Source: Anolis carolinensis
Lineage: Eukaryota
Length of the DNA: 64,000 nt
Assembly (NCBI RefSeq): GCF_035594765.1
Contig: NC_085846.1
Coordinates: forward strand, 11,643,190-11,707,189
Direction: 5' to 3'
The notes under the pieces are model-generated. The model saw only the letters and a list, made by a program, of their open reading frames with translations, did not search any database and was not told the DNA's origin. Positions 2,694 to 58,240 of the stretch are shown here, piece after piece. Within the stretch, counting starts at the first letter, position 1; every line of letters starts with the position of its first letter. The translations under genes were made by a program, and so were the position numbers.

Positions 2694-3665
2694 TTAAAGC
2701 AATAAGCATTTGTTACATTCTCTAACATATAGTTTGTTTCTCATTGTTCTCTTCAGAGCGACTTGGACCTCTTTGTTTCTCAAAGTGTAGATTATAGGGT
2801 TCAGCATAGACGTCACAACTGTATAAAACAAGGCCAGGAATTTGTCACTCTCCGCTGAGTAGCTGGATTTTGGCCTAAGATATGTGATTATGCCTGAACC
2901 ATAGAATAAGGAAACCACAATGAGGTGTGAAGAGCAGGTGGAGAAGGCTTTACGCCTACCCTCGGCTGATGGCATCCTCAAAATGGAGATGATGATGTAT
3001 ACATAGGATGTGAGAATCAGAAGGAAAGGTACAGTGATGAAAAGGACGGCCACCATGTATACAGCAATGGCGTTCATTGAGGTGGCCCCACAAGCTAGTG
3101 TCAAGAGGGGTGGGATATCACAAAAGAAGTGATTGATTCTGTTGGGCCCACAATATGACAGGCTAAAAACATAATTGGTTTGGCCTAACCCCACCATCAC
3201 TCCCACTGACCATGAGACCATGGAAAGCTGGGCACAGACACTCCGGTTCATGATGACATTGTAGTGCAATGGCTTGCATAGGGCCACAAAGCGGTCATAG
3301 GCCATAGCTGCAAGGAGACAGCATTCTGTGATGCCGAAGAGGGTGAAGAAGTACATTTGGGTGGCACACCCCCAGAGTGAGATCTTGCCGTTCTTTGATA
3401 CCAGACTTGCCAGCATCTTGGGAACAATGGCAGTGGTGTAGCATATTTCTAACAGGGATAAGTTGATCAAGAAGTAGTACATGGGTGTATGGAGGGTGGC
3501 ATTTAATTTGATCACTGTGGTGATGATGGCATTTCCAGCAAGTGAGGCAGTGTACATGAAGAGAACCAGCACAAAGAGGAGGGTCCGCATCTGTGGCAAT
3601 TCGGAAAACCCAACAAAGATGAACTCGCTCACGAGAGAAGAGTGATTAGGCATGACCCATGTCAT
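2694..3665 (-). CDS. Olfactory receptor, class II (OR10-like), intact 323 aa
   Basis: OR motifs LHTPMYYFL, MAYDRFVALCKPLHY, HFFCD, KAFSTCSSHL, MLNPIIYTLRNKEV; N-terminal NHS glycosylation site. Splice acceptor (ttacag) directly before the ATG; AATAAA at 2654-2659 on the minus strand. Confidence 0.96.
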   Translation of the reverse strand: MTWVMPNHSSLVSEFIFVGFSELPQMRTLLFVLVLFMYTASLAGNAIITTVIKLNATLHTPMYYFLINLSLLEICYTTAIVPKMLASLVSKNGKISLWGCATQMYFFTLFGITECCLLAAMAYDRFVALCKPLHYNVIMNRSVCAQLSMVSWSVGVMVGLGQTNYVFSLSYCGPNRINHFFCDIPPLLTLACGATSMNAIAVYMVAVLFITVPFLLILTSYVYIIISILRMPSAEGRRKAFSTCSSHLIVVSLFYGSGIITYLRPKSSYSAESDKFLALFYTVVTSMLNPIIYTLRNKEVQVALKRTMRNKLYVRECNKCLLL

Positions 3666-4986
3666 CTGTAATCAATTGAAAACATTGAAGAATCATTAGT
3701 CAGAAATGATGCACATTTCCCTCCCCTTCCCTACTCTACCAAATCTTAATTCTCTCTACATAGCTATGGATTCATAAACTTATTAAAGACTTGGATGTAG
3801 GATCTCAGCCATCGAGTTTTAAGATATTGATTGCAACTGCTCACTGTTAGTTTCAACTAAATATATTAAGATATATATAACATGTTCAAAGAACAGACCC
3901 ACTAAAATCTCATTAAAAGCTACAACGTAGATATTTGAGATCTTCAAAACAAAGTAATTAAAATGTCTACACACTCAAGCAATAGAAACTGGTAATTTCC
4001 TTTGACCTTGGGAAGCAAAATACTTTATCTGTATTGTGTGCCTGCCTATCGATCTATTGCTGTTGGCTGTCTTTAAATAATTTCTGACTTATGATTTAAA
4101 AACTCACCTATCACAGGATTTTCTTGGCAAGATTTGCCCTTGTCTTCTCTGAGGCTGAGGTTCAGAGTGTCACCCAATGGGTTTCCATGGTCAAGCTGAG
4201 ATTCAAGTCCTGTTTTACAGGGTCATAATCCAGTGCTCAAACCACAAAGCTCTAGATTTCTATCTCAGAACTGTATTAGAAAGAAAAGAGACCTTCAGAT
4301 GCATGCATAGTGTTAGTGTGTGTGTGTGTGTGTGTGTGTGAGTGAGTGTGTGTGTAGAGAGAGAGAGAGAGACAGAGAGAGTATCTCTCATTCAAAATTC
4401 AAAATACTTCAAAATTATCCACATGGATGGCTAAGATGACACCTTTGCTTTCTGATGGTTGTCAATGTCTACACAAACTTTGTTTGAAACTCAAAATTAA
4501 AATATTGTGTATAATATTACCTTCAGTCTACATGAATAAAATATAAATGAAACATCAATGAATTTCACATTTAGACTAGGGTCCCATCTCCAAGATATTT
4601 CAATGTATATATAAGTATTTCAAAATCTTTTTTAAAACCCTGAAATACAGAGCATTTCTGGTCCCAAGCATTTCAAATAAGGGATGCTCAACTTGTACTA
4701 TATTCCAATCTCTACAGAATTTCATATCAACCATCACCTCCTAGCTCTCAGCTTCCAAAGCTATAATTACTCTGAATACATCATATTTTAAAATTTTGTT
4801 TTTGAAAGAATAGATATATTCATGTCTAGCAAACTAGCAATATCTAAACTGACTTGCAGTAGCAACATCCATGATCTGCTCAAGAAACCATTTTGAAAGA
4901 CAAAAGGCTTGCCTTTTCTTCAAGGTGGACTGATTTTCTTTGAAATGTAAGCCACATCTCACTGTTTGCATTAAAAGAAATCATGC

Positions 4987-6575: not shown

Positions 6576-7098
6576 TTGTTATTGCATGTCTATTCCTTAT
6601 TTTTCTTCCAAAATGGCCTCCCATCCAGTTGCCATCAGATTGTTCGCTTTGACCTTCTTTCCCCCTTCTTGTTCTGTCTTTACCCCCTTTATCTATATAT
6701 ATTTTGCGTATAACACAAGGAAGCTTATAGAAAAATGGAAACCACTACAGATAAAAAAAACTGGGTAAAAAAATTAAAAACATATTGTTAAAATATAATT
6801 AAATGATCTGAAGATGAAAAACAATGTATAACTTATAAAAATGGTATGGCAAATGTAATCGTGTGTATTTACACAAGTCCTATCCTTATAAAGAATTAGT
6901 TCTCAAAAGCCTATACAATAAAGATGTTTCCAGCTGCTGATCTAATGACATCAAGGAGGGAGCCAGTCGGGTCTTTTTAGAAAGGGACTTCTACAGCCAC
7001 ATTACTCCACAAATGTGCCATGAATTAAGCCCCTTCTCAATGGTTCCCAACTGAAATAAAGTCAAATCTGGGTTATGCTTGGTTCCTGTTAGTTCCTG

Positions 7099-7649
7099 TT
7101 ACACCAGAGGAGTCAGGAGACACATGGGTTCACCATTGAGTCCATTTTTGTTGACACCTGGGCTGAACATTGGGTAAAGGCATTCAGTGAAAATGTCCAA
7201 GAAGGTGAAGATGTGATCCATGGTGTCAGCATCATAGAAGGAGACCTGTCCCCCTTCGTAATCCAGGTAGACCCCCACTTTCTGGGGCTTGACCTTTGGA
7301 TACAGCTGTTTGGATGGAGAGTCTAAGGCCTTGTACTCATTGCCGTTCCTCAACCAAATGGCCCAAAATCCATTGCTGGGCTTGACCGTTACTTTGGCTT
7401 CCTTCCTGTTGACCGACTCCTTGGCCACACCAATGTCCCAGCTGGTTTTATCTCCCACTTTGACTTCCCAGTAATGCCGCCCTGAAGTGAACCCCTGGGC
7501 ACCCAGAACGCAAACAGACTTGCTGAACCTCTCTGGCCCATCAGGGACTTCCTCCTCAGGGTTGTCCTCCAGGCGTACTGTGTCAAGATCCTTAGAAAGC
7601 ACAAGGTTGGGGTGGTTGGTGGCAGGATCCAAGGTTATAAAGCAAGGAG
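7099..7649 (-). CDS. TRIM exon 6 (PRY-SPRY/B30.2)
   Basis: acag|CT CCT TGC...; in frame with ORF 7099..7632; stop TAA. Confidence 0.93.
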
Positions 7650-10600
7650 CTGTTGAGAAAAGAGCAAAACACGGTCACCAAATAGTTGCCAACTTTTTAA
7701 GCATCCTCTCTAACCCCAACTCAAAGGAAATAAAGAGCATGTGTGTACTAAATTGGCAACCCAAATCCAATACTTTTTTTAAAATATCATTTATCCCCAT
7801 CTCCAAAGGCAAATGGCTCAAATGTCAACTGGTTGTGACTTTGGTCTGAATTTCAGTCTGAACTTCAACTACAAGGTACTGGACCCTAAACTTTAATAAA
7901 GCTCTGTTAAACTTCAAACTTTGGAATACTTAGTCCTGCATGCATACTTTGCGAAGATGTAAATCCCATGCTGAATTCCAGCCATTACTTGTGTCCACTC
8001 CTCTGCTAACAATGCCAGTTACAGCATGGCCCCCATATCCACAGGACCAATTTCGGTAATTTCATTTATCCACTCTGGGAAATTGTGGCTCCTCCTCATA
8101 TCTCTAAATCAAGTCTGCGCAACCTGTAGCCTTCCGGGTATTTTGGACTTCACCTCCCAGAATCCAGCTTGACCATTTAACAAGCCTCTGGGATTCCCAA
8201 ACATCTGGAGGGCCTCATCTAGTTGTTGTCTAGCCTCCCTCCCCTTTCCCCAGTGCAACTTGATACTATTATTGGGCCAGAACTCCCCTCGTTTCAGCAA
8301 GTTTTGCATATCCACACAAAGTCTGGAAATCTATCCCCTGTGGATACGGGAGCTGAACTATAATTTTGACCATTCCTCCAATACTTACAAGGCCTCAGGG
8401 CTGGCAACATTTCTTTCCACACCATGTACTGAATTGGGCCCTTGAACTGGCCCAAGTTGAAACCACGAGAAACTGTGGGCAAGGTAGACCACTTTTCTTC
8501 ACTGAGACAATACCTGTGAAGATAAATAAATCATTGAATCTTCATTATAAGCAGATTTTATAGGGATGATCTCAACTCTGTATGAGACTGATGAAGCTAC
8601 AAGATGGGGACAGCTGGGGACATGTACATTTGATAATGTACATAATAACACTTTTCACCTTGCTGATTGACATGGTTATATATGGTTCAATATTAGAAGA
8701 AAAGGGGGGAATCTGTGTGGATGTTGAGATATAGATTGAGGATGGTTCCTCATGCCTCACCCTAGGCATCATTGGATTCAGAGGTCCAACTTCCATGCCC
8801 CATCTTAGTTCATAGGTTCAGAGAGTTTCAAGTTTTCCAAATCTCCATAAAGCTTATTGAGCTCATGAAATGGCTCTTGAACCAAAAAATGGAAAGTAGT
8901 CTCCACTCTAGATATTTCCCAGAAAGTAGCCCAAGTAAACACAAAATAGGGAAGAGGGGATAAACAAACAGGTTCAAAATTTGAGAATTTTCCAAAGAGT
9001 GTGTCATGACACACTGGTGTGTTGGCTTCAGTGTTTAAATGTGTCATATGAACATAACGAGAAACGACAAACATCTTGGAGATGTACATTATTTTATAAA
9101 TCATATATTTTAAAATATATAAATGAAAAGTTTTCATGGGATATGTTGTGTCCTCATTCATTTCATAATTTCAATTTATGCATGTATCCATATCTTTTAT
9201 AAGGGGTTGGTTTAATCTTCGATTTGCTAGTAAAACTGAATTATTGCATCATGAAATTGTGCGTCTATATAAACGGTGTGTCACCAACATGAAATGTTTG
9301 GAAAGCTCAGCTCTACTTACTTCTCTGTGAAGACCTTGATGTCCTGTGGAAAAAGATAGCAGGAATTAGTCAAGGGGCAGCTGTTGTAAGGACACTGCCA
9401 GCTCAACAAACATTTCTGATTCTCCATATTTTTTATTCCTAACCCATTGTTGTCCTCACCATAAATTATATGGCTAAAGTGAAGAAAGTTTGGAGTAACA
9501 CAGAGAAAATGTAATGGCTTGATGGATAGAGAACTTCAACAAATTTCGATATTCAGCCCCACCTTGTGCCAGCCTGGTGGCCTCCAGATGTTTCACAGTG
9601 CATAGGATTAATGCAGTTTTATATCATTTTAACTTCCATGCTCAATGCTATGGATTCTTGTGAGTTGTAGTTAGATGAGACACTAGCATCTTTTGACATA
9701 GAACTACAACTTCCATGATTCAATAGCACTGAGCCAAGACAGTTAATTCTACAGTATAGATATAGCCTTGGAGTCCAAATTTCAGGATTCCTGAGAACTA
9801 ACTGTGCCAGCTGATGAGACAGTCCAAAACATATGGAGAAACAATTTTGCTGAGATATGCTCTCACCTTCAGGAAAGTTTCAGGGTCTTGGTGTTCCTCA
9901 AGCCGAGTTTGGATCTTAGCCATGTGTTCCTCTGCCATGTGCATTTGCTCTTGCCCATTGCGCTGGTTCCTCTCCAGTTCGCTCACCAGGAGTTCCTCCT
10001 CGTGCCGGAGTGTCCTCTTCATGGCCGCCTCCTTCTCCTGGAGCCACTGGTGAAGCTCAATGAACTGGGCCGAGAGGTGCTGCTCCAAACGGAGCCGCTG
10101 AGCCTAAAAAGGGGAAAATGACAGAGAAGACGACTGTATGAATGCATACTTCTCTAGGCAGCGCTTGGTCTCGCTGAAGCAGACCATAGCATTGTGCATG
10201 AGGACCAAATGGTATATGCAAAAATTATACAAAATGTCCAAGAATGAATTCCCTCACACAATACAGGGGACTATTACATTTTCCATAAAACTAGAAAAAA
10301 AACTTACTGTAATTTCTGGAATTTTCTGGGCACTCTGCTCTTGCAGTAGTCTTGCTGCTTGGGCTCTTGTTTCCAGTGATGCTTGAGCAGCTGTTAAGAT
10401 CTCCTAGACAGAAGAAGAGACATTTTTTAAAAGCCAAAACTAACATATATTTATTTGCAGGGCATCCAGTGTCCACTTGAAGTGCCATGGCTCAATGCTA
10501 TGGAATTCTGGAAATTGGAATTTTACAAGCCCTTCAGCTTTCTCTGCGCAAATGCTGGTACTTCCCCAAATTACAACTTGCAGGATTCCATTGCATTGAG

Positions 10601-13103
10601 CCACGACAGTTAAAATGCTCTCAAATTGTAATAATTCTACAGTGCAGATGCACCCACAGAAATGATACTGAAGTTTAAACATTCATTTATGGTTCATATA
10701 CACTTATACACATAGCTTGAATTTTATAAATTATTTTAAATCATGCATGAAATAACATTTGTGCAGTTGAACCACCAGAAAGCAAGAGGGACTTTATCTC
10801 ATCCACCCTCTACATCCACCCGGTAGGCTGTTAGGAATTGTGGGAGTTGCAATCCAAAACACCTGGAAGGCCAAAGTTTGCCCATGCCTGCTCTACATAT
10901 TTTCAGAGCTTGGAGTATTTCAGATTTTGGAATTCAAGGGAAAGGGTTGCTCTATCTGCATTATTATTATTAGTATTATTGATCTACTTTTCTTCAAATA
11001 AGGGGACCATAGTACCAAGCAACATATTTGAATGCTATACAAAAAAACTTTGAAAAAAGTCGTAATATAAACATTACTTTAAGGCAACTAAACAATTTAT
11101 AAAGTTAAATAGTTAAACAATAAAAAGCATCAATCTTCATTAAAAGACAATGCCAAGCATAACATAGCACATCACATCACTGAAAGCCGTTGCATTTAAG
11201 TTCTTAAAAGATTTGCGCCACGGAAATGTTTGCAATCACCAAATGGAAGTTCAAACTAAAATTTAGACTAAAACCCAGATCAGATTCACTAACATGGGGG
11301 ACATCAGCCAGAACTGGAAAAAAAATGCAAAATCAAGAGTGGCATACAAAAGTTATTTTGGGCTTTCAGAGGAACAGGATCCCCAGTTGCATTGACACAG
11401 AAGATAACGCCTATAGTATACCAAGGGATCTTGCAACATCTTAGAGACTAAAAAAGGGAATTCCAAAGTGACATGTCGCCCTCTGGTGGTGTATTGTAGT
11501 AATACAATCGGTGCTGACCAAAGAGTTTCTCCCATTAGAGTAGTCAGCCACACCAAGGTCCCACTTTGTCCAATATCTGGTTTCCTATAATGACTAAATA
11601 ATACTTTGAGGATGCTAAAACCTGGAAACCATAACAATCTGGCTTTCTGTTTTTGCATGATGACTTTCTGCATTTTCACGACTCATTCTGAGTCTGACTA
11701 TGGTGATATCTCCATCATGGTTGGCCAGGACCAAAACTACAATTTAACAGAATGAGACACCTTCCTATGTCAGCTCCCTGGTGGTTCCTCCAGACTTCCT
11801 AGAAATTATTTTGTGTTGAAGACAGAGCAGTGTATATCACACACTATCTGTCGTGAGTCTTTTTCACTAGTCTACTGTCGCTAATTTCATGGAGGATATT
11901 ATATCCCACTGCTGGCATTCAAGGGCTTCAAGTCAACAACTAATCCAATCATCTTCTGGACTTCGATAGGGGAGAGGACTTCGTCTTATCCTTCCTTTGA
12001 GGAACATCTCAAGTTTACTGGTATCTAGCAACTTCCATGTCAGAGGGTTCAGAGAGCACTCTTGGGCTTTTTATTTTCCAATTTTAGAGGAACTAGTCCA
12101 AGATGTAGACCTTTAGCATCATAGATAAGTCCTTTAAAGTATGGGATAAAGTCATTGTATGACCTAGCACAAGCCTTCCCAACTGCCACTGCTTGGGCTG
12201 AGAATTTAGGTATATTTGTTCTTTGTGAAGCCACCATATACTACTTTTTAAAGCCTCCAAAAACATATGGCCTTCACATTACACAGCAATGAATTCCACA
12301 TACTGAAGTTGCTTTCAACATTCCTTTCACATACACCTGAATCCATTTTCTATCAATTTCATAGGGTGGCTCCACAGTCGAATATTATCTATGATGCCTT
12401 TAGTAGCCCTGAATATGCTTTTCCTCGTGTAAGTTTTTTAATCCCACTTTCAAAAGGCCTCTAAAGCATGTGACCTTCATACTACAGAGCTAGTAATTCC
12501 ATACATTTGTTAAATGTTGCCTTCAGCATTCCTTTCATCTATATCTGAAACAATTTGCCATCAATTTCACGGGGTGACTCCAAATTGTATGGGCAAAACT
12601 AAGCAGGTGGTATACTTGTGCCTTGTGTTGCCCACCTAATCCAGACCTTCACAGTGACTCCTACTGACCTTATAGTGCTCCACAGCCTCATCTAAAGGAA
12701 GACATGGATGTCCCCAATGCTCCAGTTGCAACGACCTCACAAGACAGCCGTCGTCGGTGCAAAAGAGTCTGTCCCCCTGCAACTCCTCATCGTCATTCTG
12801 CTCCGTTTCGGCATCCTCATCACTAGCATGAGCGGAGAGAGACTCCATGGCCTTCCTTGCCAGCTGCCCCAGCACCCGGTTGGCTGTGAATTTTCCCTCT
12901 GGGATCTCACGCCGGCACTCCGGGCAAGTGGGATGTGGCACGTCCGCTCCACCGTTGACGGGTATCTCTGCCCAGTAGCGGGTAATGCAAGCTTGGCAGT
13001 AATTGTGCCCACATTCCAGCATGACAGGATCCAGAAAGAGCTCCAGGCAGATCGAACAACGCAGGTCTTCTGCAAAATCCTCCACTCCGGTTGGGACCGC
13101 CAT
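7099..13103 (-). CDS. TRIM E3 ligase (RING, degenerate B-box, coiled coil, PRY-SPRY), TRIM69/A33/XNF7-like; join(13103-12669,10403-10308,10103-9867,9343-9321,8513-8389,7649-7099), 488 aa
   Basis: All introns GT-AG. Exon sizes 435/96/237/23/125/551 fit the canonical class IV TRIM layout and keep the frame open. C3HC4 [23 protein letters not shown]; [16 protein letters not shown] motif as recalled for TRIM69-type proteins; LDPAT-HP-L, YWEV and [17 protein letters not shown] motifs. Confidence 0.92.
8389..8513 (-). CDS. TRIM exon 5 (125 bp linker)
   Basis: acag|G...CCT T|gtaag; [41 protein letters not shown]. Confidence 0.88.
9321..9343 (-). CDS. TRIM exon 4 (23-bp micro-exon)
   Basis: acag|GACATCAAGGTCTTCACAGAGAA|gtaag; the canonical 23-nt TRIM exon. 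Confidence 0.85.
9867..10103 (-). CDS. TRIM exon 3 (237 bp, coiled coil)
   Basis: ttag|GCT...AAG|gtgag; [21 protein letters not shown]...ETFLK. Confidence 0.9.
10308..10403 (-). CDS. TRIM exon 2 (96 bp, coiled coil)
   Basis: ctag|GAG...ACA|gtaag; [32 protein letters not shown]. Confidence 0.88.
11475..11490 (-). promoter_or_regulatory. CTCF motif
   Basis: Minus strand CCACCAGAGGGCGAC matches CCASYAGRKGGCR; a weaker same-orientation site lies at 11771-11784. Confidence 0.6.
12669..13103 (-). CDS. TRIM coding exon 1 (RING + B-box relic)
   Basis: ATG at 13103 (gtcATGg); ends HYK|gtcagt, phase 0. Confidence 0.92.
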
Positions 13104-14097
13104 GACAGTGCACAGTGCCACCGGGCAGATTGCAAATAACTTCAAAACTTCTCACCAACCCTGGCGGTATTCCTCTCCTCCCCTTCCTAATTTGCAGTTG
13201 TTTCCTCTGTGTATCCAAAACACTTCTTCACAATCTGGTTTTCCCAAATATTATCCTCACTTTTTATTTTGTCCACGTTCCTCTCTCCAGAAAAAAAGGA
13301 CAAATGTTCTCTTGAAGTATTTTAACTCCAGATGCCCTCCTCCTTTCTCTTCTTTCAAATTTCTTATATCCTTTTCCAAGTTACCTCGTGAAATACATAC
13401 ACCCCTTGGATTAAATACTCTTCTGCTATAGGACTCTTCACTTGCCCATTGTTTCCTGCTCGGCTAGGTTTCTTCACAGTATTTTCTATGCATTTCTCAA
13501 TCCAATATTCTCTTCTCCGTCTTCTTCAAAACGGGCCCTGCCCAGACGCTACAAGTCTCAACACAGCTTCTGATGAATTCTTCAAATAACAGCTGCTTTT
13601 AAAAGGGTATGCAACAGCAGTGCATGACCCATCTTTGCCTCTTATTCAATGCCTCTCCGAAATCTTTCTCATTACCTTTTGAAGCCCCACCTTTCCACTC
13701 TTTGGTCTACTCCAGATGACTCACTCAGGAAAGCAGGACCTGACGCATCCAGCTGCCCAAGCATTTCTAAACCAGATGTGGGCAATTCTGGGGTATCCAG
13801 AAGCCACAAAAAGGTTAGGCAGAGCACCTATAATTTTTCCCACATTGAATTAGAGTAAGCATGGGCAAACTTTGGCCCTCCAGTTGTTTTCCATTGTGGG
13901 AGTTGATGTCCAAAACACCTGGAGAGCTGAAGTTTGCCCATGTCTGGGTTAGAATATCTTAAAAGTTGTGTGATCCACATTTAATCCGTATTGCTTCCCC
14001 CCCACAATGCAATTCAAGATCAAACACAAGGGCAGCCATATCATTGAATGGAGGAGCTTTATAAGATGTAGAAAGGAGGAGGTGGCAAAAAAGAAAT

Positions 14098-14110
14098 AGT
14101 TTCCATTTCT
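14098..14110. promoter_or_regulatory. ISRE upstream of the TRIM gene
   Basis: AGTTTCCATTTCT matches the consensus AGTTTCNNTTTCY, about 1 kb upstream of the TRIM ATG; an AP-1 site (TGACTCA) lies at about 13717. Confidence 0.55.
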
Positions 14111-14469
14111 GGTAAAGAAGCCAGAGTACAATCAGCAACAGATGCCAACAGCCAGAACCCTTAGATCTTGATGAGCCATTGGAAAGGATTGGATGAAATG
14201 CATTAAAAGACAGAGTCTTTGTTGTGAGGGTCTAACAGAAGCAAATTTGGTCAAAAGGTTCACTGGTGTTTCTTCAGTGTTTCTTCACCAGTGGAAAGGT
14301 CTCTCCTCTGGAAGTGAGGGGAAGAGGCAAGCCAAAAAAAACAGTTGCAACCTGAACTGAAATTAGGGAGACAGCTCTGAATTTTGCCTAACTAGGAACA
14401 GACCGAGACGCTTTGGTTAGAGCTTGGAAAGGTTATTTTTTTGGACCACAACTTCCAGAAATCAAGCAG

Positions 14470-14552
14470 GATTATGGCACAGTGGGTTAAAGCACTGAGC
14501 TGCTGAAATTGCTGATCAAAAGGTTGGCAGTTCAAATTCTCAGAGCAGGTTG
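14470..14552 (+). mobile_element. Sauria SINE 5' part, split by the ERV
   Basis: tRNA-derived head ggcacagtgggttaaagcactgagctgctgaa...ggcagttcaaat; continues at 19225. Confidence 0.8.
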
Positions 14553-14956
14553 TAAGGCAGGAATGAAGGGGTAGGAGGAAATGGCCATATAAGGAGGTAC
14601 GAGCAGGCCAGGAACACAGCCGATGGGTTATCACATGGTTTCCCTGAAATCATGTGTTTTGAGAGAAACGAAAGTAATGAAGAAATGTAATACTGCACCA
14701 CAAATATGCACCAATGGTTTGATATGTGGGCGGTCGTAAACTGAACCCACTGCCTTGTATAAATAGACACTCGACCCTGTCTGCGGGGTTCTCCCTTTTC
14801 AGCATCTAGTTGTGCGTGGGATGAACCTCTGCAGCTGCAGGAACTATAGTAAACTGCTTTCTTTGGAAAAACCTCCAGTTGTCTGTCTCCTACTTCCACT
14901 GCGTCCGCACAGACACACGAGAAGCCGGGAAGAGGGGAAATCTGGCTTCCGCTACA
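14553..14956 (+). repeat. 5' LTR
   Basis: TAAGGCAG...GCTACA; CCAAT (about 14711), GC box GGGCGG, TATAAATA (14758), AGTAAA polyA variant (14848). Confidence 0.95.
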
Positions 14957-14961
14957 TTTTC

Positions 14962-14979
14962 TGGTGACCCCGACGTGAT
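14962..14979 (+). other. Primer binding site, tRNA-Trp
   Basis: TGGTGACCCCGACGTGAT, the 18-mer known as the tRNA-Trp PBS of avian leukosis/sarcoma viruses, 5 nt after the LTR end. Confidence 0.9.
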
Positions 14980-15403
14980 TCCACAATAAGACGGGCCAGG
15001 AGATCGGAGACGGATCCCGTTGGCGGGACGGTCCCAACTCAGCGGTGGGGGCCAGAGGCAACTACCGTGAGACGAGAAGGGGCCCCTGAATATTGTAAGA
15101 CCGGCTGCGGTACTTGCCTCTGATGCCAACGCCGGCCGACGGTGGGAGCCGCAACGACAGCGAGGTTCCAAAGAAACCAGCTAGGAGGAAAAGGATCCAG
15201 GGAAAAAGCCCAGGGGCGAAGGTTGGTCCGACGTCTACAGCAATCTGGCAAGTATAGTGGTTAAATGAGACACTAAGGGAACAGCGCCGGGAGGGACACA
15301 AAGGTTCCCAGGGAGATATAAAGGGGTTCTGTCTTGTGATTCCTGACACACACCGTTGAGTGTCCAGGTGCCCAGTCCAAGGCAGTCCCCTCTATTAGGC
15401 AGG

Positions 15404-15550
15404 ATGGGAGGCAGTGGGTTCAAATCCACCACCCCATTACAGTGTATGTTAGACAATTTCGGCTCAGTTGCAAGTAGAGCCGTAGAAGGAATTCCCCAGA
15501 GAACAAGACTTGTGAGGGTGCCCCAAGACCAAGTCGTGCAGGGCTCATGA
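15404..15550 (+). pseudogene. gag: gag N-terminal (matrix) stub, 48 aa
   Basis: MGGSGFKSTTPLQCMLDNF resembles ERV1 matrix starts (MG myristoylation, TPL-CML-NF) at the expected distance from the PBS; stops early. Confidence 0.65.
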
Positions 15551-16127
15551 GGAGTCGCAACTCCCGGGGGGAAAAAAAAAACTGTTTGATTTCTTTGTTA
15601 TGTGTGGGGAATAATGAGTTTCAAGTTCTGCATGTTTCGTGGTAATATTGAAGTGAAAATGAAAAATGAGTCTATAGATTTACACAAAAAATGTTGAGCA
15701 CAAATATCTAGAAATGTTTTATTACGGTTGAAAAAATCTGATTCGAAGAGGGTCTGTGTTAGTTTGCTTTTGCTGACAAGCTGCAGAGAGGCGAGAAAAA
15801 GGGAGGGTGGTGTTGAGGCTGTTAAAGTGGTGTTGAAGCTCAGAAAGTTTTCCTTGTTATTTCTGAGAAACAAAAGCTGTTTTCTTAAAAAGTTTTCTTT
15901 TGCACCTGGGCCTCATGCCAAAAAAGATAGTGGGAAAATCTTGGCAGACAGTCCAAGGTAAAAACGCCCTGTCATTCTGGTTAAACTCAGGCGAAATGCC
16001 CAGAGAAAGATAAATGGAATTCCAGTGGACAGCCAAGGTCAATGAAAGCCACTGTGAACTAGTGAAGTTTTAAAAAATGTAATGTGAATCTAATATGAAA
16101 AAAAAAAGAAAGAAAATGATGATGTAA

Positions 16128-16165
<38 letters not shown>

Positions 16166-18622
16166 TTATTGGGGTTCTGTCTTTCACCTGGAACTTAAAT
16201 CCTTGCTTTGAACTTGTTTTGGGACAACTAGGTGAGAATGTTTCATGAGCTGAGAGAGAGTGTGTGATTTTATCTAAACAACTAACCACTAATCAGAATT
16301 CCTGTGGACCTTGTGTGAATGAGATGTATGTGTTGAATTCAAAATGCATAAAGAGTTATAAACAATGTTAGTAGATTTGTTCAGAAGCAATTCGGAAGCT
16401 GTAGATATTTTTTTTTTTGGAAAAAAAAATGGTCTTAGGCTTGAAAAAAAAAATCCTTGTTTTGAAAGAACAATGCTTCAGTGTTTTTAGAGAACATGGT
16501 GATACAACAGATAAGAGCTGGACATCTGCCCAGAAATTGAATCTCAAGGGAAAAAAAAATGAGCCTGAACAAGTGTACTTTTGAAAACTCAAGCCTCTGT
16601 GGGCTACTCCCCCTTTTTCCTGTTCTACAGACTTTAAACCCCTTACAGGTTATAGGGAAATGTTGGAGGTTCTTTTTTTTGCAGCACTTTGGAATACAGG
16701 TGATCTTGGTGAGTCAAGAAGAAGGAGAAGGAATGTGAATGAATGTTTTGGAAAGGAGAGGACAAGGAGAGGAGTTATTGGTTGTGGAGACTTTGTATGG
16801 AAAACTGTCACAAGTTGGCAGTGCAAAAAAATAAATAAATATATATTTATTTTTGGAAAAAAAAATTGATCCCATATTCCTGACACAGAAGGATTAAGAA
16901 CTGACATTGATTTTTAAATTTTTGATTGACATTTTATTCAAAAAGGGAGCTAGTGCCCAAGTGATAAAAAGTTATCCTTTTGAGAACCAAAGACATGATA
17001 TAATTGGCTGCATCTCATGTTGCTTCATAATAATTTTGTGAGATTTGGATTCTGAACTTTGTGATTTTGGCCCAACTCTTTCTAAAGGTTACGGAAAGGA
17101 AGGACTAGGACTTTTGTAAACGGGACATTAGATCATGCAAATAGGGGCATTTTTTCCATCGCCCCCAGCCTGGATTTTGCCAGATTTGAGAAGCGGCAGG
17201 AGGCTTTTCAACGTGTGTTACTAACAAATTTTGAGCTGTTCAACGAGTCGGTGTAAAAGGGGAATTGAGTAAGTTTAACACTGCAGCAGGACTGGAGTGG
17301 AAGATTGCATTGCAGCAAGTGGATACACGATTGTTAAATCGTTTGCGGAAAGGAAAAGAAAAAGATGCGGAGAAGAAAGATTTTGTTGGATTTCAAGACA
17401 GATGAGTGTGTTGTCAAAGGCACAACCTCTGAGGAGGCCTGCCTTGGATGTGAGCGAAACGACTAGAGAGAGTGCTTCAAGAGCCATACAGCCTGGAAGG
17501 ATGAGTATTTCCCTCCCCTTCTTTTCCCTCTCATTGTTTTTTGCTACAGGTCCTGAACTCCTGTATGGGATAAACCCAGAAGTCTATGAGACATGTTTAT
17601 TGAGAGGCCTGGGAGGGCCTATAGGTGTTGCTGAGTGCTAAGGCTGTGATGGAGTGTGGCATCAGGCTGGAGGCTGTAAGGGCTGACCAACTCAACAACA
17701 TACAATTTTCTATTTTGACCCAACTCTCCTGGATAGGACCTTTTGTAATGGGACATTGCAAATAATTCGGATTTTTGACGGATTTGAGAGACAATGAGGG
17801 ACTTTTTCATATGCCATCTAACAACCTTGCTTTTTAAGCCAAAAGGAGGATATAGCACGGAGACAATGTGACAAAGAATAAAATAAGTTAACCATTGCAG
17901 CAGGACCAGAGTAAAAAGGATTACTGCAGATCGCGAAAGAAGGCCCATGGAGGAATCATTTCTCAAGAGGCCATGGAGGGGTCGTTTGGGAGCTGAATAG
18001 TGGCCTACCTGCCCCACCCGTGGAGAGACAAGGGATTTCAACAAGATTGGCTGAGACAAAAGTGATGCCGAACAGGATGATCGACAGATGGGTAATCCGT
18101 TCCCCCTCCCCCATTCTCTCTCACTGTCTTCCTGCTTTCTTTTTCAGCTTTTTGGACTCCTGTTCCAAAATTGGAGATCCATAAGGCATTGTTACTGAGA
18201 GGCCTGTTTTCCAAAATGGAGATCCATAAGGCATTATTACTGGAAGGCCTGTTTTGGAATCCAAAACCCGTAGGAGTTTAAGTCTACCCCACGCCACACA
18301 TACTGGGTATGACAGCTAAAGCCCTGTGAGAGATGGAGATTTTCTTTACAGACTTTTCTTTACACAGAGACAATTCTTAGAGACTAGAGACTTGATTGGA
18401 CAAAGAGACTTTCTTCAAATTAACTGAACATTATTCCTTTGATCAAGGAAGAGGAAACACACCCCCAGTTTGACTTTATGCCAAAGACTGAAAAGACCTG
18501 AAAGTTGGACATGCATGTGAATGGCCACCTCTGGCCATAGCAACAAATCCATCATCGGAAGAAGCCAAATGACTGGGCTAGATCAGAATTCTACTGTGGA
18601 CTATGTCCTTTCTAAAACCTGA

Positions 18623-18751
18623 TTAATATTTTTAATCCTCATGTGTTGTTTACCTCTGGTGATGAAACTATGTACAAATGCTATTCTGCGCTCATTTTCC
18701 ACTGAAAAGATAGCTTGGCTGCAAGCTAGAAGGGATTGGAGGAACCCATAA
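18623..18751 (+). pseudogene. env: env TM anchor / cytoplasmic tail relic
   Basis: Frame reads LIFLILMCCLPLVMKLCTNAILRSFSTEKIAWLQARRDWRNP* and ends about 45 nt before the PPT; preceded by an in-frame stop. Confidence 0.55.
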
Positions 18752-18795
18752 GTCTGCTCATTTAGTTTGCTTCAGCTTTTGTATACACGCTTCGC

Positions 18796-18816
18796 AAAAA
18801 AAAAAAAATGGGGGAA
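18796..18816 (+). other. Polypurine tract
   Basis: A13-T-G5-AA immediately before the 3' LTR. Confidence 0.85.
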
Positions 18817-19220
18817 TAAGGCAGGAATGAAGGGGTAGGAGGAAATGGCCATATAAGGAGGTACGAGCAGGCCAGGAACACAGCCGATGGGTTATCACAT
18901 GGTTTCCCTGAAATCATGTGTTTTGAGAGAAACGAAAGTAATGAAGAAATGTAATACTGCACCACAAATATGCACCAATGGTTTGATATGTGGGCGGTCG
19001 TAAACTGAACCCACTGCCTTGTATAAATAGACACTCGACCCTGTCTGCGGGGTTCTCCCTTTTCAGCATCTAGTTGTGCGTGGGATGAACCTCTGCAGCT
19101 GCAGGAACTATAGTAAACTGCTTTCTTTGGAAAAACCTCCAGTTGTCTGTCTCCTACTTCCACTGCGTCCGCACAGACACACGAGAAGCCGGGAAGAGGG
19201 GAAATCTGGCTTCCGCTACA
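18817..19220 (+). repeat. 3' LTR
   Basis: Identical by eye to 14553-14956. Confidence 0.95.
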
Positions 19221-19224
19221 GTTG

Positions 19225-19400
19225 AGCTGTCGCTGTTAGCCCCAGCTTCTGTCAACATAGCAGTTTGAAAACATGCATATGTGAATAGATCAATAAGTAT
19301 TGCTTCTACTAGGAGGTGTCTACGGACAACGCTGGCCTTTCGGTTTAGAAATGGAGATGAGTACCATTTAATGTCAGGGGGAAACTTTTACTTTTACCTT
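19225..19400 (+). mobile_element. Sauria SINE 3' part
   Basis: agctgtcgctgttagccccagcttctg...gtagatcaata-like core and a ttttacct tail. Confidence 0.8.
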
Positions 19401-19414
19401 AAATATCCTAAAAA

Positions 19415-19585
19415 TGTCAGATTCCATCTGACCTTAGCAGAGTCACACTAGCTGATACTTGGATGGAAGACCACCCAATGAAAACCAGGTGCTGTGGGCT
19501 ATATTTCAGAAGAAGGAACTGGCAAACCCATCTGTATTTCTTGCCTCTGAAAAGTTATAAGGTCTCCATAAATCAAAAGGCACTT
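19415..19585 (+). mobile_element. 5S rRNA-derived SINE (degraded)
   Basis: tacttggatggaagaccacc...ccaggtgctgtgggc resembles the 5S 3' half; its tail is shared with the 26.6 kb copy. Confidence 0.65.
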
Positions 19586-20479
19586 CTTAGAAATGTAGGG
19601 AGCATATAGTAAAACTTTCGCTCACATTTTAAAAGAACTCTTCAAAATTCAAAGCATCATGAATTCTAAAATTAAATATGGATGAAATGTATCTTTCATA
19701 TATTTCAAAATGCATGAACTATCAGTGGCCTTCCAAATGAACTCACATCAAGCCCAATGCAATGTGGTATGGGGGATGTTGGGAGTTGGAATCCAACATC
19801 ACCTGGAGGGTAGCAAATAGCAAGGAATATGTGGAGTCACAGTCCAATCCTTTCCATTCTATTCTTCCCTTCCCCAAAACATCAAACAAGGAAAAGCTTC
19901 CATAAAGAGGGACAGCCTGGAAACATTTTGCAGAAGAATATTCTCAAAAGCACTTTAGCAGGACTAGAAGGAAAGGCGTGCTTACTTTCAGACAAGGAAG
20001 AAAGGTGTTTTTGATTTTAATACGTATTTTTCTAAGCCATTAGTCATGGCACTCATTTTAGAAAGGGAAGTCCCCTGTCAATAAATTACATGCCACATGC
20101 TCCACTGCTCTCTCTCTCATGAATAAGCTTGTTGCCCATCCTCTCTGGTTTTGCAATTTTGCAAGGGTTTCATTCCTCCCTCTTGACCCCTCTAGGCATA
20201 AACCTGGTTTCTTTAAGAGGTGATTCAGTGTCGCAGGAAGTGGAGAAGAGGTTTGATGGTCCAGTGCTAAGGAATGATGCAAGTTGTTATTTCACAAGAT
20301 CTTTAGCCATCTCTGCACAAGATTTCAGGTGCCTCATGATTCCATAGAATTAGGCCATGGCAGTTAGCGTAGTGTCAAACTGCATTAATTCTACAGTGTA
20401 GATACATCCCAGGATACTTGCAGCCACACAACATCCAAGCACAGTCAAAATGGCAAAAGTTATTAAATGAAGAGGAACA

Positions 20480-29652: not shown

Positions 29653-36145
<6,493 letters not shown>

Positions 36146-38745: not shown

Positions 38746-39852
38746 GGGGAGATGGGGAAAGCAAAGAACACAAACAAGTTTTATTGCCGCTTTAAGCCTC
38801 TGCGTTGGGAGAGGAAAGAGTCGAAAATCAGGACAATAAATAAAGAACAATACTCAGAAAACAGGGGAATTCCAGACAGGAAACAATCAGGGCCAGCTAA
38901 CACTGCCCAACAGAGGATTCCCCCAGGCAGGAAGCAGCCAGGCTTTGAAGCTTCGAGGCCATTGTCTGTTTGATGTAAGTGTGAATGTTCCAATTGGCCA
39001 CCTTGAAATCAGGACAGTAAGTAAAGAAAAACACTCAGAAAACTAGGGAATTCCAGACAGGAAACAATCAGGGCCAGCTAACACCTCCCAACAAAGGATT
39101 CTCCCAGGCAGGAAGCAGCCAGGATTTGAAGCTGCAAGGCCATTTAATGCTAATGAAGGTAGCCAATTGTCTGTTTGAGGTAAGTGTGAATGTTCCAATT
39201 GGCCACCTTGAAATCAGGACAGTAAGTAAAAAAAAAAAAACACTCAGAAAACTGGGAAATTCCAAACAGGAAGCAATCAGGGCCAGCTAACACTGCCCAA
39301 CAGAGGATTCCCCCAGGCAGGAAGCAGCCAGGATTTGAAACTGCAAGGCCATTTAATGTTAATGAAGGTAGCCAATTGTCTGTTTGAGGTAAGTGTGAAT
39401 GTTCCAATTGGCCACCTTGAAATCAGGACAGTAAGTAAAAAAAAAAAACACTCAGAAAACTGGGGAATTCCAAACAGGAAGCAATCAGGGCCAGCTAACA
39501 CTGCCCAACAGAGGATTCCCCCAGGCAGGAAGCAGCCAGGCTTTGAAGCTTCGAGGCCATTGTCTGTTTGATGTAAGTGTGAATGTTCCAATTGGCCACC
39601 TTGAAATCAGGACAGTAAGTAAAGAAAAACACTCAGAAAACTAGGGAATTCCAGACAGGAAACAATCAGGCCAGCTAACACCTCCCAACAAAGGATTCCC
39701 CCAGGCAGGAAGCAGCCAGGATTTGAAGCTGCAAGGCCATTTAATGCTAATGAAGGTAGCCAATTGTCTGAGGTAAGTGTGAATGTTCCAATTGGCCACC
39801 TTGAAATCAGGACAGTAAGTAAAAAAAACACTCAGAAAACTGGGGAATTCCA

Positions 39853-40333
39853 GCCTGGACACAGAATACTATTTGAGAACACAAAAATGCTGGACCATTC
39901 AAACAACTATCATGTCAGACTACACAGAGAAGCCATTGAAATCCACAAGCATGTGGACAACTTCAACAGAAAGGAAGAAACCATGAAAATGAACAAAATC
40001 TGGCTACCAGTTTTACAAAACTCCAAAATCAAAACATTAGAACGGGAACCAACACAATGAGGACTTGACTGAACAAAGGATGCCCCCAGGCAAGGGACAA
40101 AACATTTCCAATGCCAATTTGGGTGATTAACTGAAACATTAATGCTGGCTCCCAGTGACAAAGGACTCTTGCCACACCTTGGACTATACACAGATATATA
40201 TTCTTTCCTTTCCTTACTTAGTTTATCCATACCTCACAACCTCTGAGGATGCCTGCCATAGATGTGGGCGAAATGTCAGGAGAGAATACTTCTGGAACAT
40301 GGCCACACAGCCCGAAAGACATACAACAACCCT
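39853..40333 (+). mobile_element. Penelope-like element 3' portion (GIY-YIG C-terminus + pLTR)
   Basis: PGHRILFENTKMLDHSNNYHVRLHREAIEIHKHVDNFNRKEE...W is a PLE GIY-YIG tail, followed by a hammerhead motif. Confidence 0.85.
40240..40280 (+). ncRNA. Minimal type I hammerhead ribozyme
   Basis: CCT-CTGAGGA-T-GCCTGC/GTGGGC-GAAAT-GTC-AGG; core intact, stem III ACGT changed to ATGT. Confidence 0.7.
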
Positions 40334-41177
40334 GTTTGAGGTAAGTTTGAATGTTCCAATTGGCCACCTTGAAATCAGGACAGTAAATTAAAAAAAACAC
40401 TCAGAAAACTGGGGAATTCCAGACAGGAAACAATCAGGGCCAGCTAACACCACCCAACAAAGGATTCCCCCAGGCAGGAGCTCATTTGTTGGTGGAGATG
40501 TATTCTTCCATCTCTGTGCATAAAACTGTGATCACTATATTGTAGCTCTAATCACTGTATTACAGTAGTCTTCTATGATTTTTCTCCAACTGCTTACCCA
40601 TAAGACAAAGTTCAAGTTTCAAATGAATGTTAATATTACGAAGAATAAATTTTATTTTTGCCCGCCTCGCTTCAAGACTCGAACCAGGCTACAACACTGT
40701 TAAAATACATAAGATTAAATACACGAGACCATGAAAACACATATATTAAAAGACATAGCCCTAAGATTAAAACACAATAAAATAATTTGGATCCTCTGCA
40801 TTAACAGCAACGCTTTTGGGTTTCTCATACATCTTCCACACGTGGCATCTCTTTCTGATTAGCATTATAGCTTTGGAAACAAGACTCTAAAAAATTGTTT
40901 ATTCCACTTCTAAAACAGGAAAACACCATTGTAGCACATAGCAGAGTCAGTTATTTAAAACTGGAGGGTCCCTTTAAACCAAATGGCTTTAAAGTTTCAT
41001 TCCAAGTTTGGCAGCAGGATAATTTATTAAAAATGTAGAAAATATTTATAGGGGAACATTTTTGGAAACAACCATTTTAAAGAGAAATACTCCATCTGTC
41101 TGGTAAAGAGTGTTGTATGGATTTGATTTGAATTAAGAGAAGGCATGCTTCCAAGGCCAGAATTAATTACAGTCTAT

Positions 41178-56623: not shown

Positions 56624-58240
56624 CTGGCAAAGGAAAGAGAAAGAACGAATCAGGGAAGAAACTGGTATGCATTTATTTATCTATTGACATAGTAAATTTT
56701 CAGCCTCTCCGTGACCCAAAAAACCTGAAAGCTTAAGGTTGCTGAACTAAAGTGTGAAAATGCTTGGTACTATTGTGGCTCAGCAAGCGGCAGGGGATTT
56801 TTCTGATGTTTCAGAGGATGAAACAAAGTGAAGAGTCTGCTAGTAATCAGAGAGAATTGCAGGCTGAAGAAGCTGTTGTTTGGGATTCCTGTGCTCGTTC
56901 CCAGACAACAAAAAGTGAAGATTTCAGTTCTCTTGTGAAACAGCCTTTGGCTGATGGGAAATTTTCTCAAGCAGCCAAATTAGGTTTGAGAATGGAGAGA
57001 GTAAAAAATAGACTAATTAGATGTTCTGAGAGAATCTGTGAAAAGTCCTTGAAGCCCAGGTGTGTTCGGCATGATCTCATGGCTTCCTGGTCGGGCTTAA
57101 ATTAAGTGGTGTTTACTCTGTGCCTCTTAGAGGAGACAACGTTTCCTGTCTTGGCTCTCAAGTTCATGATTCAAGTTTCCTCTTTTTGCCTATATTTCTT
57201 GAAGAGTTTGCCTTGGAAAAGGTTCCTGTTTTCATGCTTATGGATTTATGTTTGAGATTTTGGCTTCACTGATTTCCTGTACTTTGACATTCTTAGATTG
57301 CTGCTATTTTGTATTTTTTACTCTACTACACTTTTGGGAAATGCCCTTTTTCCCCTTTGCACATGCTTTTCTTAATAAACTTTTGTAGATAGTACTACTG
57401 AACTCTGGTGTGGTGATGGGTGAAAAGGCATCTCAAGGCTTGTGCAACAGATACCTCATCTAGAAGTCAACGAGGGGAGAAGGTTTTGTTAAATAATTTT
57501 TATATAAGAAAAATGCAAAGTAAAACACAAAACAGATATTTTAGTCATATAAAACTATCAAAGCTACACAACTAGATTACAAATAAAAAACAGGGGTTTT
57601 TAAAGAAAAAATCTGCAAACTTCCCACTATCTATCTGATGGTTGTTTCCCCTTATTAAGCTATTCTCTTTTTTTTAAAAAATAATGTAATCACCCTTCCA
57701 TTTAAGACAACATTTTACTTTTTTAATGGAACCCACAATTATCCCTCCATTTATGTAAAAAAAATCATTTCTCTAAAGTGCTCGTATATAATATTGTATA
57801 TAAGTCTACAAGAGTACTGAGGCAATGGAGAACACAGACCAAAATCCTAGATCTGGGAGAAGTAGCATGAACTTCCACTGGGCAAATATATGTCACATCT
57901 TCTCTCACACTGCTCATCCCAAACTCAATGGACATCAAAGATGGCAGGGAAGACTCCAGCTATATTCATGTTACTGAACATAAAGTAAAAGGCATTCTTA
58001 GTGAATGGGTTAATGGTCCTCCAGACGTCCCGGAGGCTGATGTTATTTATACATTCAGGTAGCAATAGGAGCAAGCAACATCACTTTGACGATCTCTGCC
58101 AGACAATAAGTGTTTGTTAGCCTTCTTCTATGAAGACAAGTCACCCCACTTCCATATTTCTTACTTGCACATGTGACTCCCGGTGTCTCCTCTTCCTCCA
58201 AAACTTTAGAGTCACATGCTTTCTCCTTTGTTCCTGGCAT
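53451..58240 (-). CDS. ZNF629: ZNF629-like C2H2 zinc-finger protein; join(58240-58165,56623-53451), about 1082 aa
   Basis: 13 tandem canonical fingers whose recognition helices (QWSK, QSSH, WSSN, QSTN, RSSD, QSAN, QSSE, HGAT, LSSA, LASN, MSST, RSSH, QSSN) follow the order I recall for human ZNF629, including the unusual GERPNTC linker; further scattered or degenerate fingers. Acceptor ccag|GT GAT GGT at 56623, phase 1. Confidence 0.75.
56771..57449 (+). mobile_element. Solo LTR (Gypsy-like)
   Basis: TaTTG...CAACA termini, AATAAA at about 57374, 5-bp TSD ggtac/gatac. Confidence 0.6.

Follow-up and report, generated by a model that had tools for sequence, protein, structure and literature searches.

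The stretch of Anolis carolinensis DNA analysed here, the window (64,000 nucleotides of contig NC_085846.1), carries a TRIM gene on the minus strand and, upstream of it, an LTR element on the plus strand. Also in the window, all on the minus strand, are an olfactory receptor ORF (2694-3671), exons of a kinase which we take to be MAPK7-like (30618-33845) and two long C2H2 zinc-finger exons (43745-45901 and 53451-56672); an array of 181-209-nt repeats at 38785-40479 includes an ORF fragment that is presumably similar to the terminal part of a Penelope-like element. The features of the TRIM gene, of its upstream region and of the insertion are as follows.

7099-7649, minus strand: TRIM exon 6, PRY-SPRY
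8389-8513, minus strand: TRIM exon 5
9321-9343, minus strand: TRIM exon 4
9867-10103, minus strand: TRIM exon 3, inferred coiled coil
10308-10403, minus strand: TRIM exon 2, with AG/GT sites and an open frame
12669-13103, minus strand: coding exon 1 of the A33-like TRIM, RING and a degenerate B-box-like stretch
13104-13522, minus strand: probable 5' UTR adjoining exon 1 without a break, its least extent taken from a contig of run X18
13717-13723: AP-1 consensus TGACTCA, one of 10 in the window
13856-13951: MITE-like short inverted-repeat element (repeat families D6/D14, very high depth)
14098-14110, plus strand: host ISRE AGTTTCCATTTCT, an exact AGTTTCN2TTTCN, in single-copy DNA
14475-14548, plus strand: older SINE-like repeat interrupted by the insertion, left part
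14549-14552, plus strand: target-site duplication GTTG, left copy
14553-14956, plus strand: 5' LTR, 404 bp, TA...CA ends
14632-14656, plus strand: E-box (CACATG), 2 nt, GAS (14640-14648), 2 nt, E-box (CATGTG), forming a palindrome with 11-bp arms
14664-14675, plus strand: IRF/ISRE site, reading ACTTTCGTTTCT on the minus strand
14711-14763, plus strand: CCAAT box (14711), GC-rich box and TATA box (14758), also in runs common to the sister lineage
14957-18816, plus strand: non-coding interior, polypurine tract at its 3' end
14962-14979, plus strand: primer-binding site
18817-19220, plus strand: 3' LTR, 100% match to the 5' LTR, with GAS at 18904-18912 and IRF site at 18928-18939
19221-19300, plus strand: right copy of the target-site duplication (19221-19224), then the right part of the split SINE-like repeat

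The start codon at 13103 on the minus strand, as given in the first-pass annotation, was confirmed, and the six exons together encode 488 amino acids with no internal stop; exon 1 matches an Anolis sagrei protein at 96% over 145 amino acids. Public run X18, guessed to be RNA, has contigs that give no start site, strand or level, one of which covers 12668-13522 and halts at the exon 1 donor with 29 unmatched letters, and another of which matches the exon 3 region (9866-10102) and ends with 85 and 59 unmatched letters. Contig ends at exon borders fit splicing of the TRIM. No piece ending at the TRIM splice sites was found in run X17, likewise guessed to be RNA.

The gene had been described as TRIM69-like, which holds in the sense of a paralogue but not of an orthologue. 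In a PRY-SPRY tree of 30 rows (midpoint root, mammalian TRIM69 not included) the window gene falls in a clade of A33-like proteins from squamates, turtles and amphibians (100/99), whereas another anole gene (locus L055, contig C13), 76% to turtle TRIM69, groups with three turtle TRIM69 proteins (97/92). The C13 gene is also the best genome match of turtle TRIM69, at 75% (E 2e-89) against 53% for the window gene. Finally, the C13 TRIM69 gene has upstream of it a gene whose translation, on visual inspection, is B2M-like, whereas the window TRIM is not beside B2M and has the olfactory receptor, MAPK7-like kinase and zinc-finger genes as neighbours; human TRIM69, we take it, adjoins B2M. Orthology with TRIM69 was rejected on these three grounds, and the window gene is a conserved A33-like paralogue, the orthologue lying on another contig. 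Searches of the PDB did not settle TRIM orthology. The gene has the RING, coiled coil and PRY-SPRY of the TRIM69/Xnf7/A33 subfamily, with 57% to turtle TRIM69 in the PRY-SPRY, but is set apart from TRIM69 in the A33-like clade; it is 97% to the A. sagrei protein, and its PRY-SPRY is 84-97% conserved across squamates. The earlier name is understandable, since the Podarcis orthologue is labelled TRIM69 in one database. As the gene is not TRIM69, the interferon biology of TRIM69 cannot be carried over to it; in PMC6880163 a reptile TRIM69, as distinct from the window gene, is reported to have given no inhibition of VSV.

A second TRIM of the A33/TRIM69 group lies about 4.7 kb past the end of the window (G000:C6:11711865-11715426), with a PRY-SPRY that forms a long branch adjoining the TRIM69 clade and with no strict ISRE in the 20 kb examined. 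Most of the 102 B30.2 matches of the genome are held by a cluster at about 23-33 Mb of contig C2.

Upstream of the TRIM, the host ISRE at 14098 and the AP-1 site at 13717 are present where the first-pass annotation had placed them. By the ISRE consensus given in PMC5985295, the exact form occurs once in the 64-kb window and at least once in 35 of 100 window shuffles (mean 0.47); a manual rescaling to the 1.45 kb that precede the ATG puts the chance at about 1%. A relaxed ISRE is found in 9.4% of shuffles of 13104-14552. No host GAS was found in the same interval. The ISRE lies at least 576 nt beyond the known end of the TRIM transcript, unless the start is further upstream, and the MITE-like element sits between the two; the sole Rfam match in 13000-19600, at this MITE, was below the gathering score. 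As non-chance sites the host ISRE and AP-1 are weaker than the motif pair of the LTR.

The insertion itself (14553-19220, plus strand) is a non-coding element of 4.7 kb with the hallmarks of a class I endogenous retrovirus (ERV), namely paired LTRs, a primer-binding site (presumably of tRNA-Trp type), a polypurine tract and a 4-bp duplication. It splits a repeat which we take to be a Sauria SINE, the halves of which are contiguous in 11 blast hit pairs elsewhere, some of these at overlapping loci. All plus-strand frames of the 3.86-kb interior are of 120 amino acids or fewer, and in most of its length no clear gag/pol remnant was found; the element is not a complete provirus. The two LTRs show no difference, bounding their divergence at 0.74%, which at assumed rates of 5e-9 to 1e-9 corresponds to less than about 0.7-3.7 million years, and identical LTR pairs are present in 12 of the 13 closest family copies. 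The copy at this locus is a recent insertion. No second copy of its flank was found in the assembly; of 24 public runs listed, none of them on record as RNA, four were compared over 6900-14620, and in the two high-share runs, X1 and X8, the flank contigs among the matches listed end at 14503, in the older SINE-like repeat. Run X8 also has GATC insertions at GATC sites (window 7586, 8567 and 10397), which are probably an artefact of a proximity-ligation library and not alleles.

Within the 5' LTR, TTTCCCTGAAA at 14639-14649 (9-mer GAS at 14640-14648) and AGAAACGAAAGT at 14664-14675 lie about 85-120 nt upstream of the TATA box (14758) and hence in U3, with second copies in the 3' LTR at 18903 and 18928; here the first-pass annotation was accurate, although it did not record the two E-boxes that flank the GAS (14632-14637 and 14651-14656). 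A loose GAS+IRF pair, its sites within 50 nt, arose in 0.13% of 3000 dinucleotide-shuffled LTRs and the strict pair in none (0/3000), and the observed pair is therefore beyond chance. A TTCN3GAA and an ISRE-type site thus stand at close, fixed spacing, as in ISRE+GAS composites. Just 3' of the TATA box is GGGGTTCTCC (14785-14794), which presumably fits the NF-kB consensus, and a similar run is seen in sister LTRs.

A genome search for the element family gave 461 candidates, of which 40 were scored and 30 fetched. Both motifs are kept in 28 of the 28 closest other LTR copies, the GAS being TTTCCCCGAAA in 7, but this reflects youth more than selection, because the copies examined are the most similar ones. 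The exact GAS/IRF pair occurs at 359 genome sites against 1 in the control, and the junction of LTR end and primer-binding site at 420 in the genome. When 20 junctions lacking the exact pair were fetched, 2 belonged to the window's lineage and 18 to a sister lineage, mostly about 8.3 kb long, with LTRs of 477-491 bp whose identity to the window LTR is about 68% in a gapped alignment (a method which inflates identity). The sister lineage encodes gamma-type gag, pol and env domains (Gag_MA, Gag_p30, RVP, RVT_1, rve, MLVIN_C and TLV_coat), its best solved-structure matches are p80 RT/RNase H chains (1e-173) which we take to be of the MLV group, and its copies differ in how their reading frames are broken. 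Judged by these domains, and by TG...CA ends with 4-bp duplications in 16 of 17 copies, it is a class I (gamma-like) ERV, like the coding member in class I ERVs with non-autonomous partners; the window lineage differs in being without a long ORF and in an LTR that starts with TA, not TG. This TA start is found at 30 of 30 loci of the non-coding lineage, which is still widely spread and has 4-bp duplications.

The primer-binding site, leader, U5 end and polypurine tract are common to the two lineages, the first 539 nt of the window element's interior being 83-92% like the sister leader and the last 110 nt about 73%. The window element is accordingly best classified as a non-autonomous class I ERV, gene-less and with cis elements in common with the gamma-like coding lineage; the common leader (83-92%) and 3' end point to its being copied in trans. 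A 9.6-kb copy considered as the coding partner was rejected, as it is another copy of the non-coding element, with a Ty3/gypsy inserted in it. Locus L031 (G000:C12:8859388-8868583) is a non-coding copy with a nested, opposite-strand Ty3/gypsy of about 5.3 kb.

The motif block was also compared with that of the sister lineage. In the sister LTRs TTCTGGGAA and GAAATGAAAGC likewise begin 25 nt apart, and in ungapped comparison all 18 sister LTRs examined keep 15 of 15 invariant motif bases, while 5 of 5 degenerate bases are changed (Fisher 6e-5, for what is a single evolutionary contrast picked after looking). The linker shows conservation too, with 11-13 of its 16 bases matching in the 18 sister LTRs (ungapped), 20-nt windows across the block form the best-conserved part of U3 (0.84-0.89), and some of the differences between the lineages are CpG-type transitions. 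A flank-anchored pattern blind to the GAS matched 902 sites against 1 in the control, with TTC-N3-GAA in 99 of the 100 matches listed, and when most of the IRF site was left free in the pattern 954 sites matched; of the 100 listed, 9 came from an unrelated repeat, and by hand count 89 of the remaining 91 had both GAAA halves. The generic E-box/GAS/E-box/IRF layout has 1,050 sites in the genome and 64 in the control; 95 of the 100 matches listed belong to the two lineages and, clustered by hand, fall at 58 loci, which extrapolates to about 600 loci genome-wide, and no third diverged lineage was present among these 100 of 1,050. This suggests that these elements supply most of the GAS-16-IRF composites in the anole genome. 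Conservation of both motifs across family copies, which the first-pass annotation had named as a check, is borne out by the 28 closest LTRs, the 359 exact pairs and the diverged sister lineage, and the composite block is a family-wide trait of both lineages.

Conservation of a palindrome could also arise if the block were structural, whether as a hairpin formed by RNA of the 3' U3 or as a DNA element of symmetric form, its GAS-like appearance being a product of stem and loop. Two sister LTRs fold into a 17-bp stem (z = -4.9 and -3.5), most variant positions are still Watson-Crick or G.U on the sense strand, with one pair changed on both sides, and the free centre of the GAS would be the loop. 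However, the window copy folds into 11 bp with z = -0.9, no better than shuffles, and the commonest sister variant, present in 20 of the sense-strand sister sites counted, breaks a pair four bases from the loop and keeps the GAS. The IRF site, moreover, is outside the stem and conserved on its own (9/9 invariant bases kept and 2/2 degenerate changed, p=0.018), and the E-box variants are explained by CpG decay. A purely structural role is thus improbable, and less likely than that of an enhancer.

The enhancer reading is strengthened by likeness to characterised elements. Two of the three GAS forms of the family equal functional sites in Table 1 of PMC5985295: TTTCCCCGAAA is there the GAS of IRF1 and distal STAT1, and TTTCTGGGAAA that of AIM2, IRF9 and BST2. 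The CCT centre of the window copy is absent from the sites in that table, and this copy may be weaker than they are. The IRF site of the block was compared with the MX1 ISRE of the same table (GG-TTT-CG-TTT-CT), and the 14-nt linker is within the range of its four ISRE+GAS composites (IRF9, IFITM1, STAT2 and distal TRIM69; 14-16 nt). As TTCN3GAA sites also bind STATs besides STAT1 (PMC5985295), the inducing signal need not be interferon. A set of GAS, E-box and IRF site is found in CIITA pIV as described in PMC6540827 and PMC6291510; the likeness is to this set, and none is claimed in base-level spacing because the CIITA GAS string was not found in the literature search. CIITA pIV and the composites are host promoters with shown binding, whereas the block is viral and known from sequence, and it differs from them in having two symmetric E-boxes, mostly not CACGTG. 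In the anole genome itself, GAS of the block form and an ISRE also precede the B2M-like gene, its start codon being preceded at about 250 nt by two GAS and a triple-GAAA ISRE (L064:1713-1760; G000:C13, ~18,942,200). A GAS+ISRE cluster found 7.7 kb ahead of the TRIM69 gene on C13 was considered as the counterpart of the human distal TRIM69 composite and rejected, as it precedes the B2M-like gene.

The nearest precedent is MER41, whose LTRs in primates, and those of MER41_BT in cattle, are reported to disperse GAS sites as candidate interferon-inducible enhancers (PMC2897888, PMC9435751). Both are LTR families that spread GAS sites, and the sister-lineage GAS equals that of AIM2; MER41B, however, has two GAS 21 bp apart where the lizard block has one between two E-boxes, plus an IRF site, and the lizard family, in a different host and with very young copies, is likened to MER41 by motifs and not by sequence homology. 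Among titles and the openings of abstracts, no description of a lizard ERV with interferon-type motifs was found, although the families may already be named.

The likeliest reading is that the block is a STAT/IRF-responsive viral enhancer working like that of primate MER41. STAT dimers would bind the GAS, aided by bHLH-zip factors at the flanking E-boxes, IRF1 or ISGF3 would bind the IRF site, and the two sites would jointly drive the TATA promoter of the LTR in immune-activated cells; the coding sister lineage would copy the non-coding element in trans. The copy in the window would have landed by chance, about 1.0 kb past the known 5' extent of the A33-like TRIM transcript. That the virus has in this block a cytokine-responsive enhancer of its own, and that the proximity of this copy to the TRIM is accidental, we consider, taken together, reasonably probable.

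The first-pass annotation had instead proposed co-option in progress, in which the LTR block would give the divergent TRIM a further inducible enhancer in addition to the host ISRE. The block is about 1.1 kb from the known end of the TRIM transcript and 0.54 kb from the exact ISRE, U3 is oriented toward a TRIM which is intact and apparently spliced, and there is mammalian precedent, including polymorphic insertions (as reported in PMC9435751). Against this, the gene is not TRIM69, its PRY-SPRY conservation (84-97% across squamates) would be unlike that of an arms-race factor, the host contributes a single ISRE and no GAS in 13104-14552, and the landing can be explained by chance. Assuming 20,000 genes, of which 300 are ISGs, the approximately 600 loci would by chance place an insertion within 2 kb upstream of 13 genes, of 0.19 of the ISGs and of 0.07 of the 102 B30.2 loci, and 0.7-1.2 landings would also have a relaxed ISRE. 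Beside a TRIM, and with an exact ISRE 0.45 kb away, an insertion is less likely than not by chance (0.07 expected, for the B30.2 loci), but a single landing, found by scanning windows and with 13 expected, is weak evidence for co-option. Early co-option of this copy is therefore unlikely and the proposal unsupported at the locus, the gene not being the TRIM69 orthologue and its landing being within chance expectation; what survives of the earlier family-level claim is the STAT/IRF-type motif pair as a family trait, judged by sequence.

Young ERVs are prime targets of silencing. The insertion may thus be silenced by DNA methylation and H3K9me3, and either be neutral or dampen the TRIM promoter, a possibility which we hold tentatively. 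The LTR and leader are CpG-rich (o/e 0.56-0.67) compared with the CpG-poor upstream region (0.08-0.21); on the other hand the TRIM is apparently transcribed in run X18, if this is RNA as guessed. Silencing is compatible with the preferred reading of a viral enhancer that landed by chance, and the two are not exclusive.

On present evidence, then, the single locus is an ordinary insertion and the interest rests on the family. In its strongest form, which we consider doubtful, the proposal would be that a gamma-like retrovirus and its non-coding parasite, still or recently mobile, have scattered about 600 working STAT/IRF enhancers, many of them polymorphic, and that some, including the copy at this locus, alter host interferon induction. 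If true, that strongest form would be the MER41 process seen at its start and outside mammals. The precedents found for mobile-element interferon enhancers are, as far as these sources go, mammalian, the best-known cases being both old and fixed. A reptile family with identical LTR pairs and a composite kept in two lineages could show whether the virus is the first to benefit from such motifs and, through natural filled and empty alleles, how often fresh insertions change a host gene.
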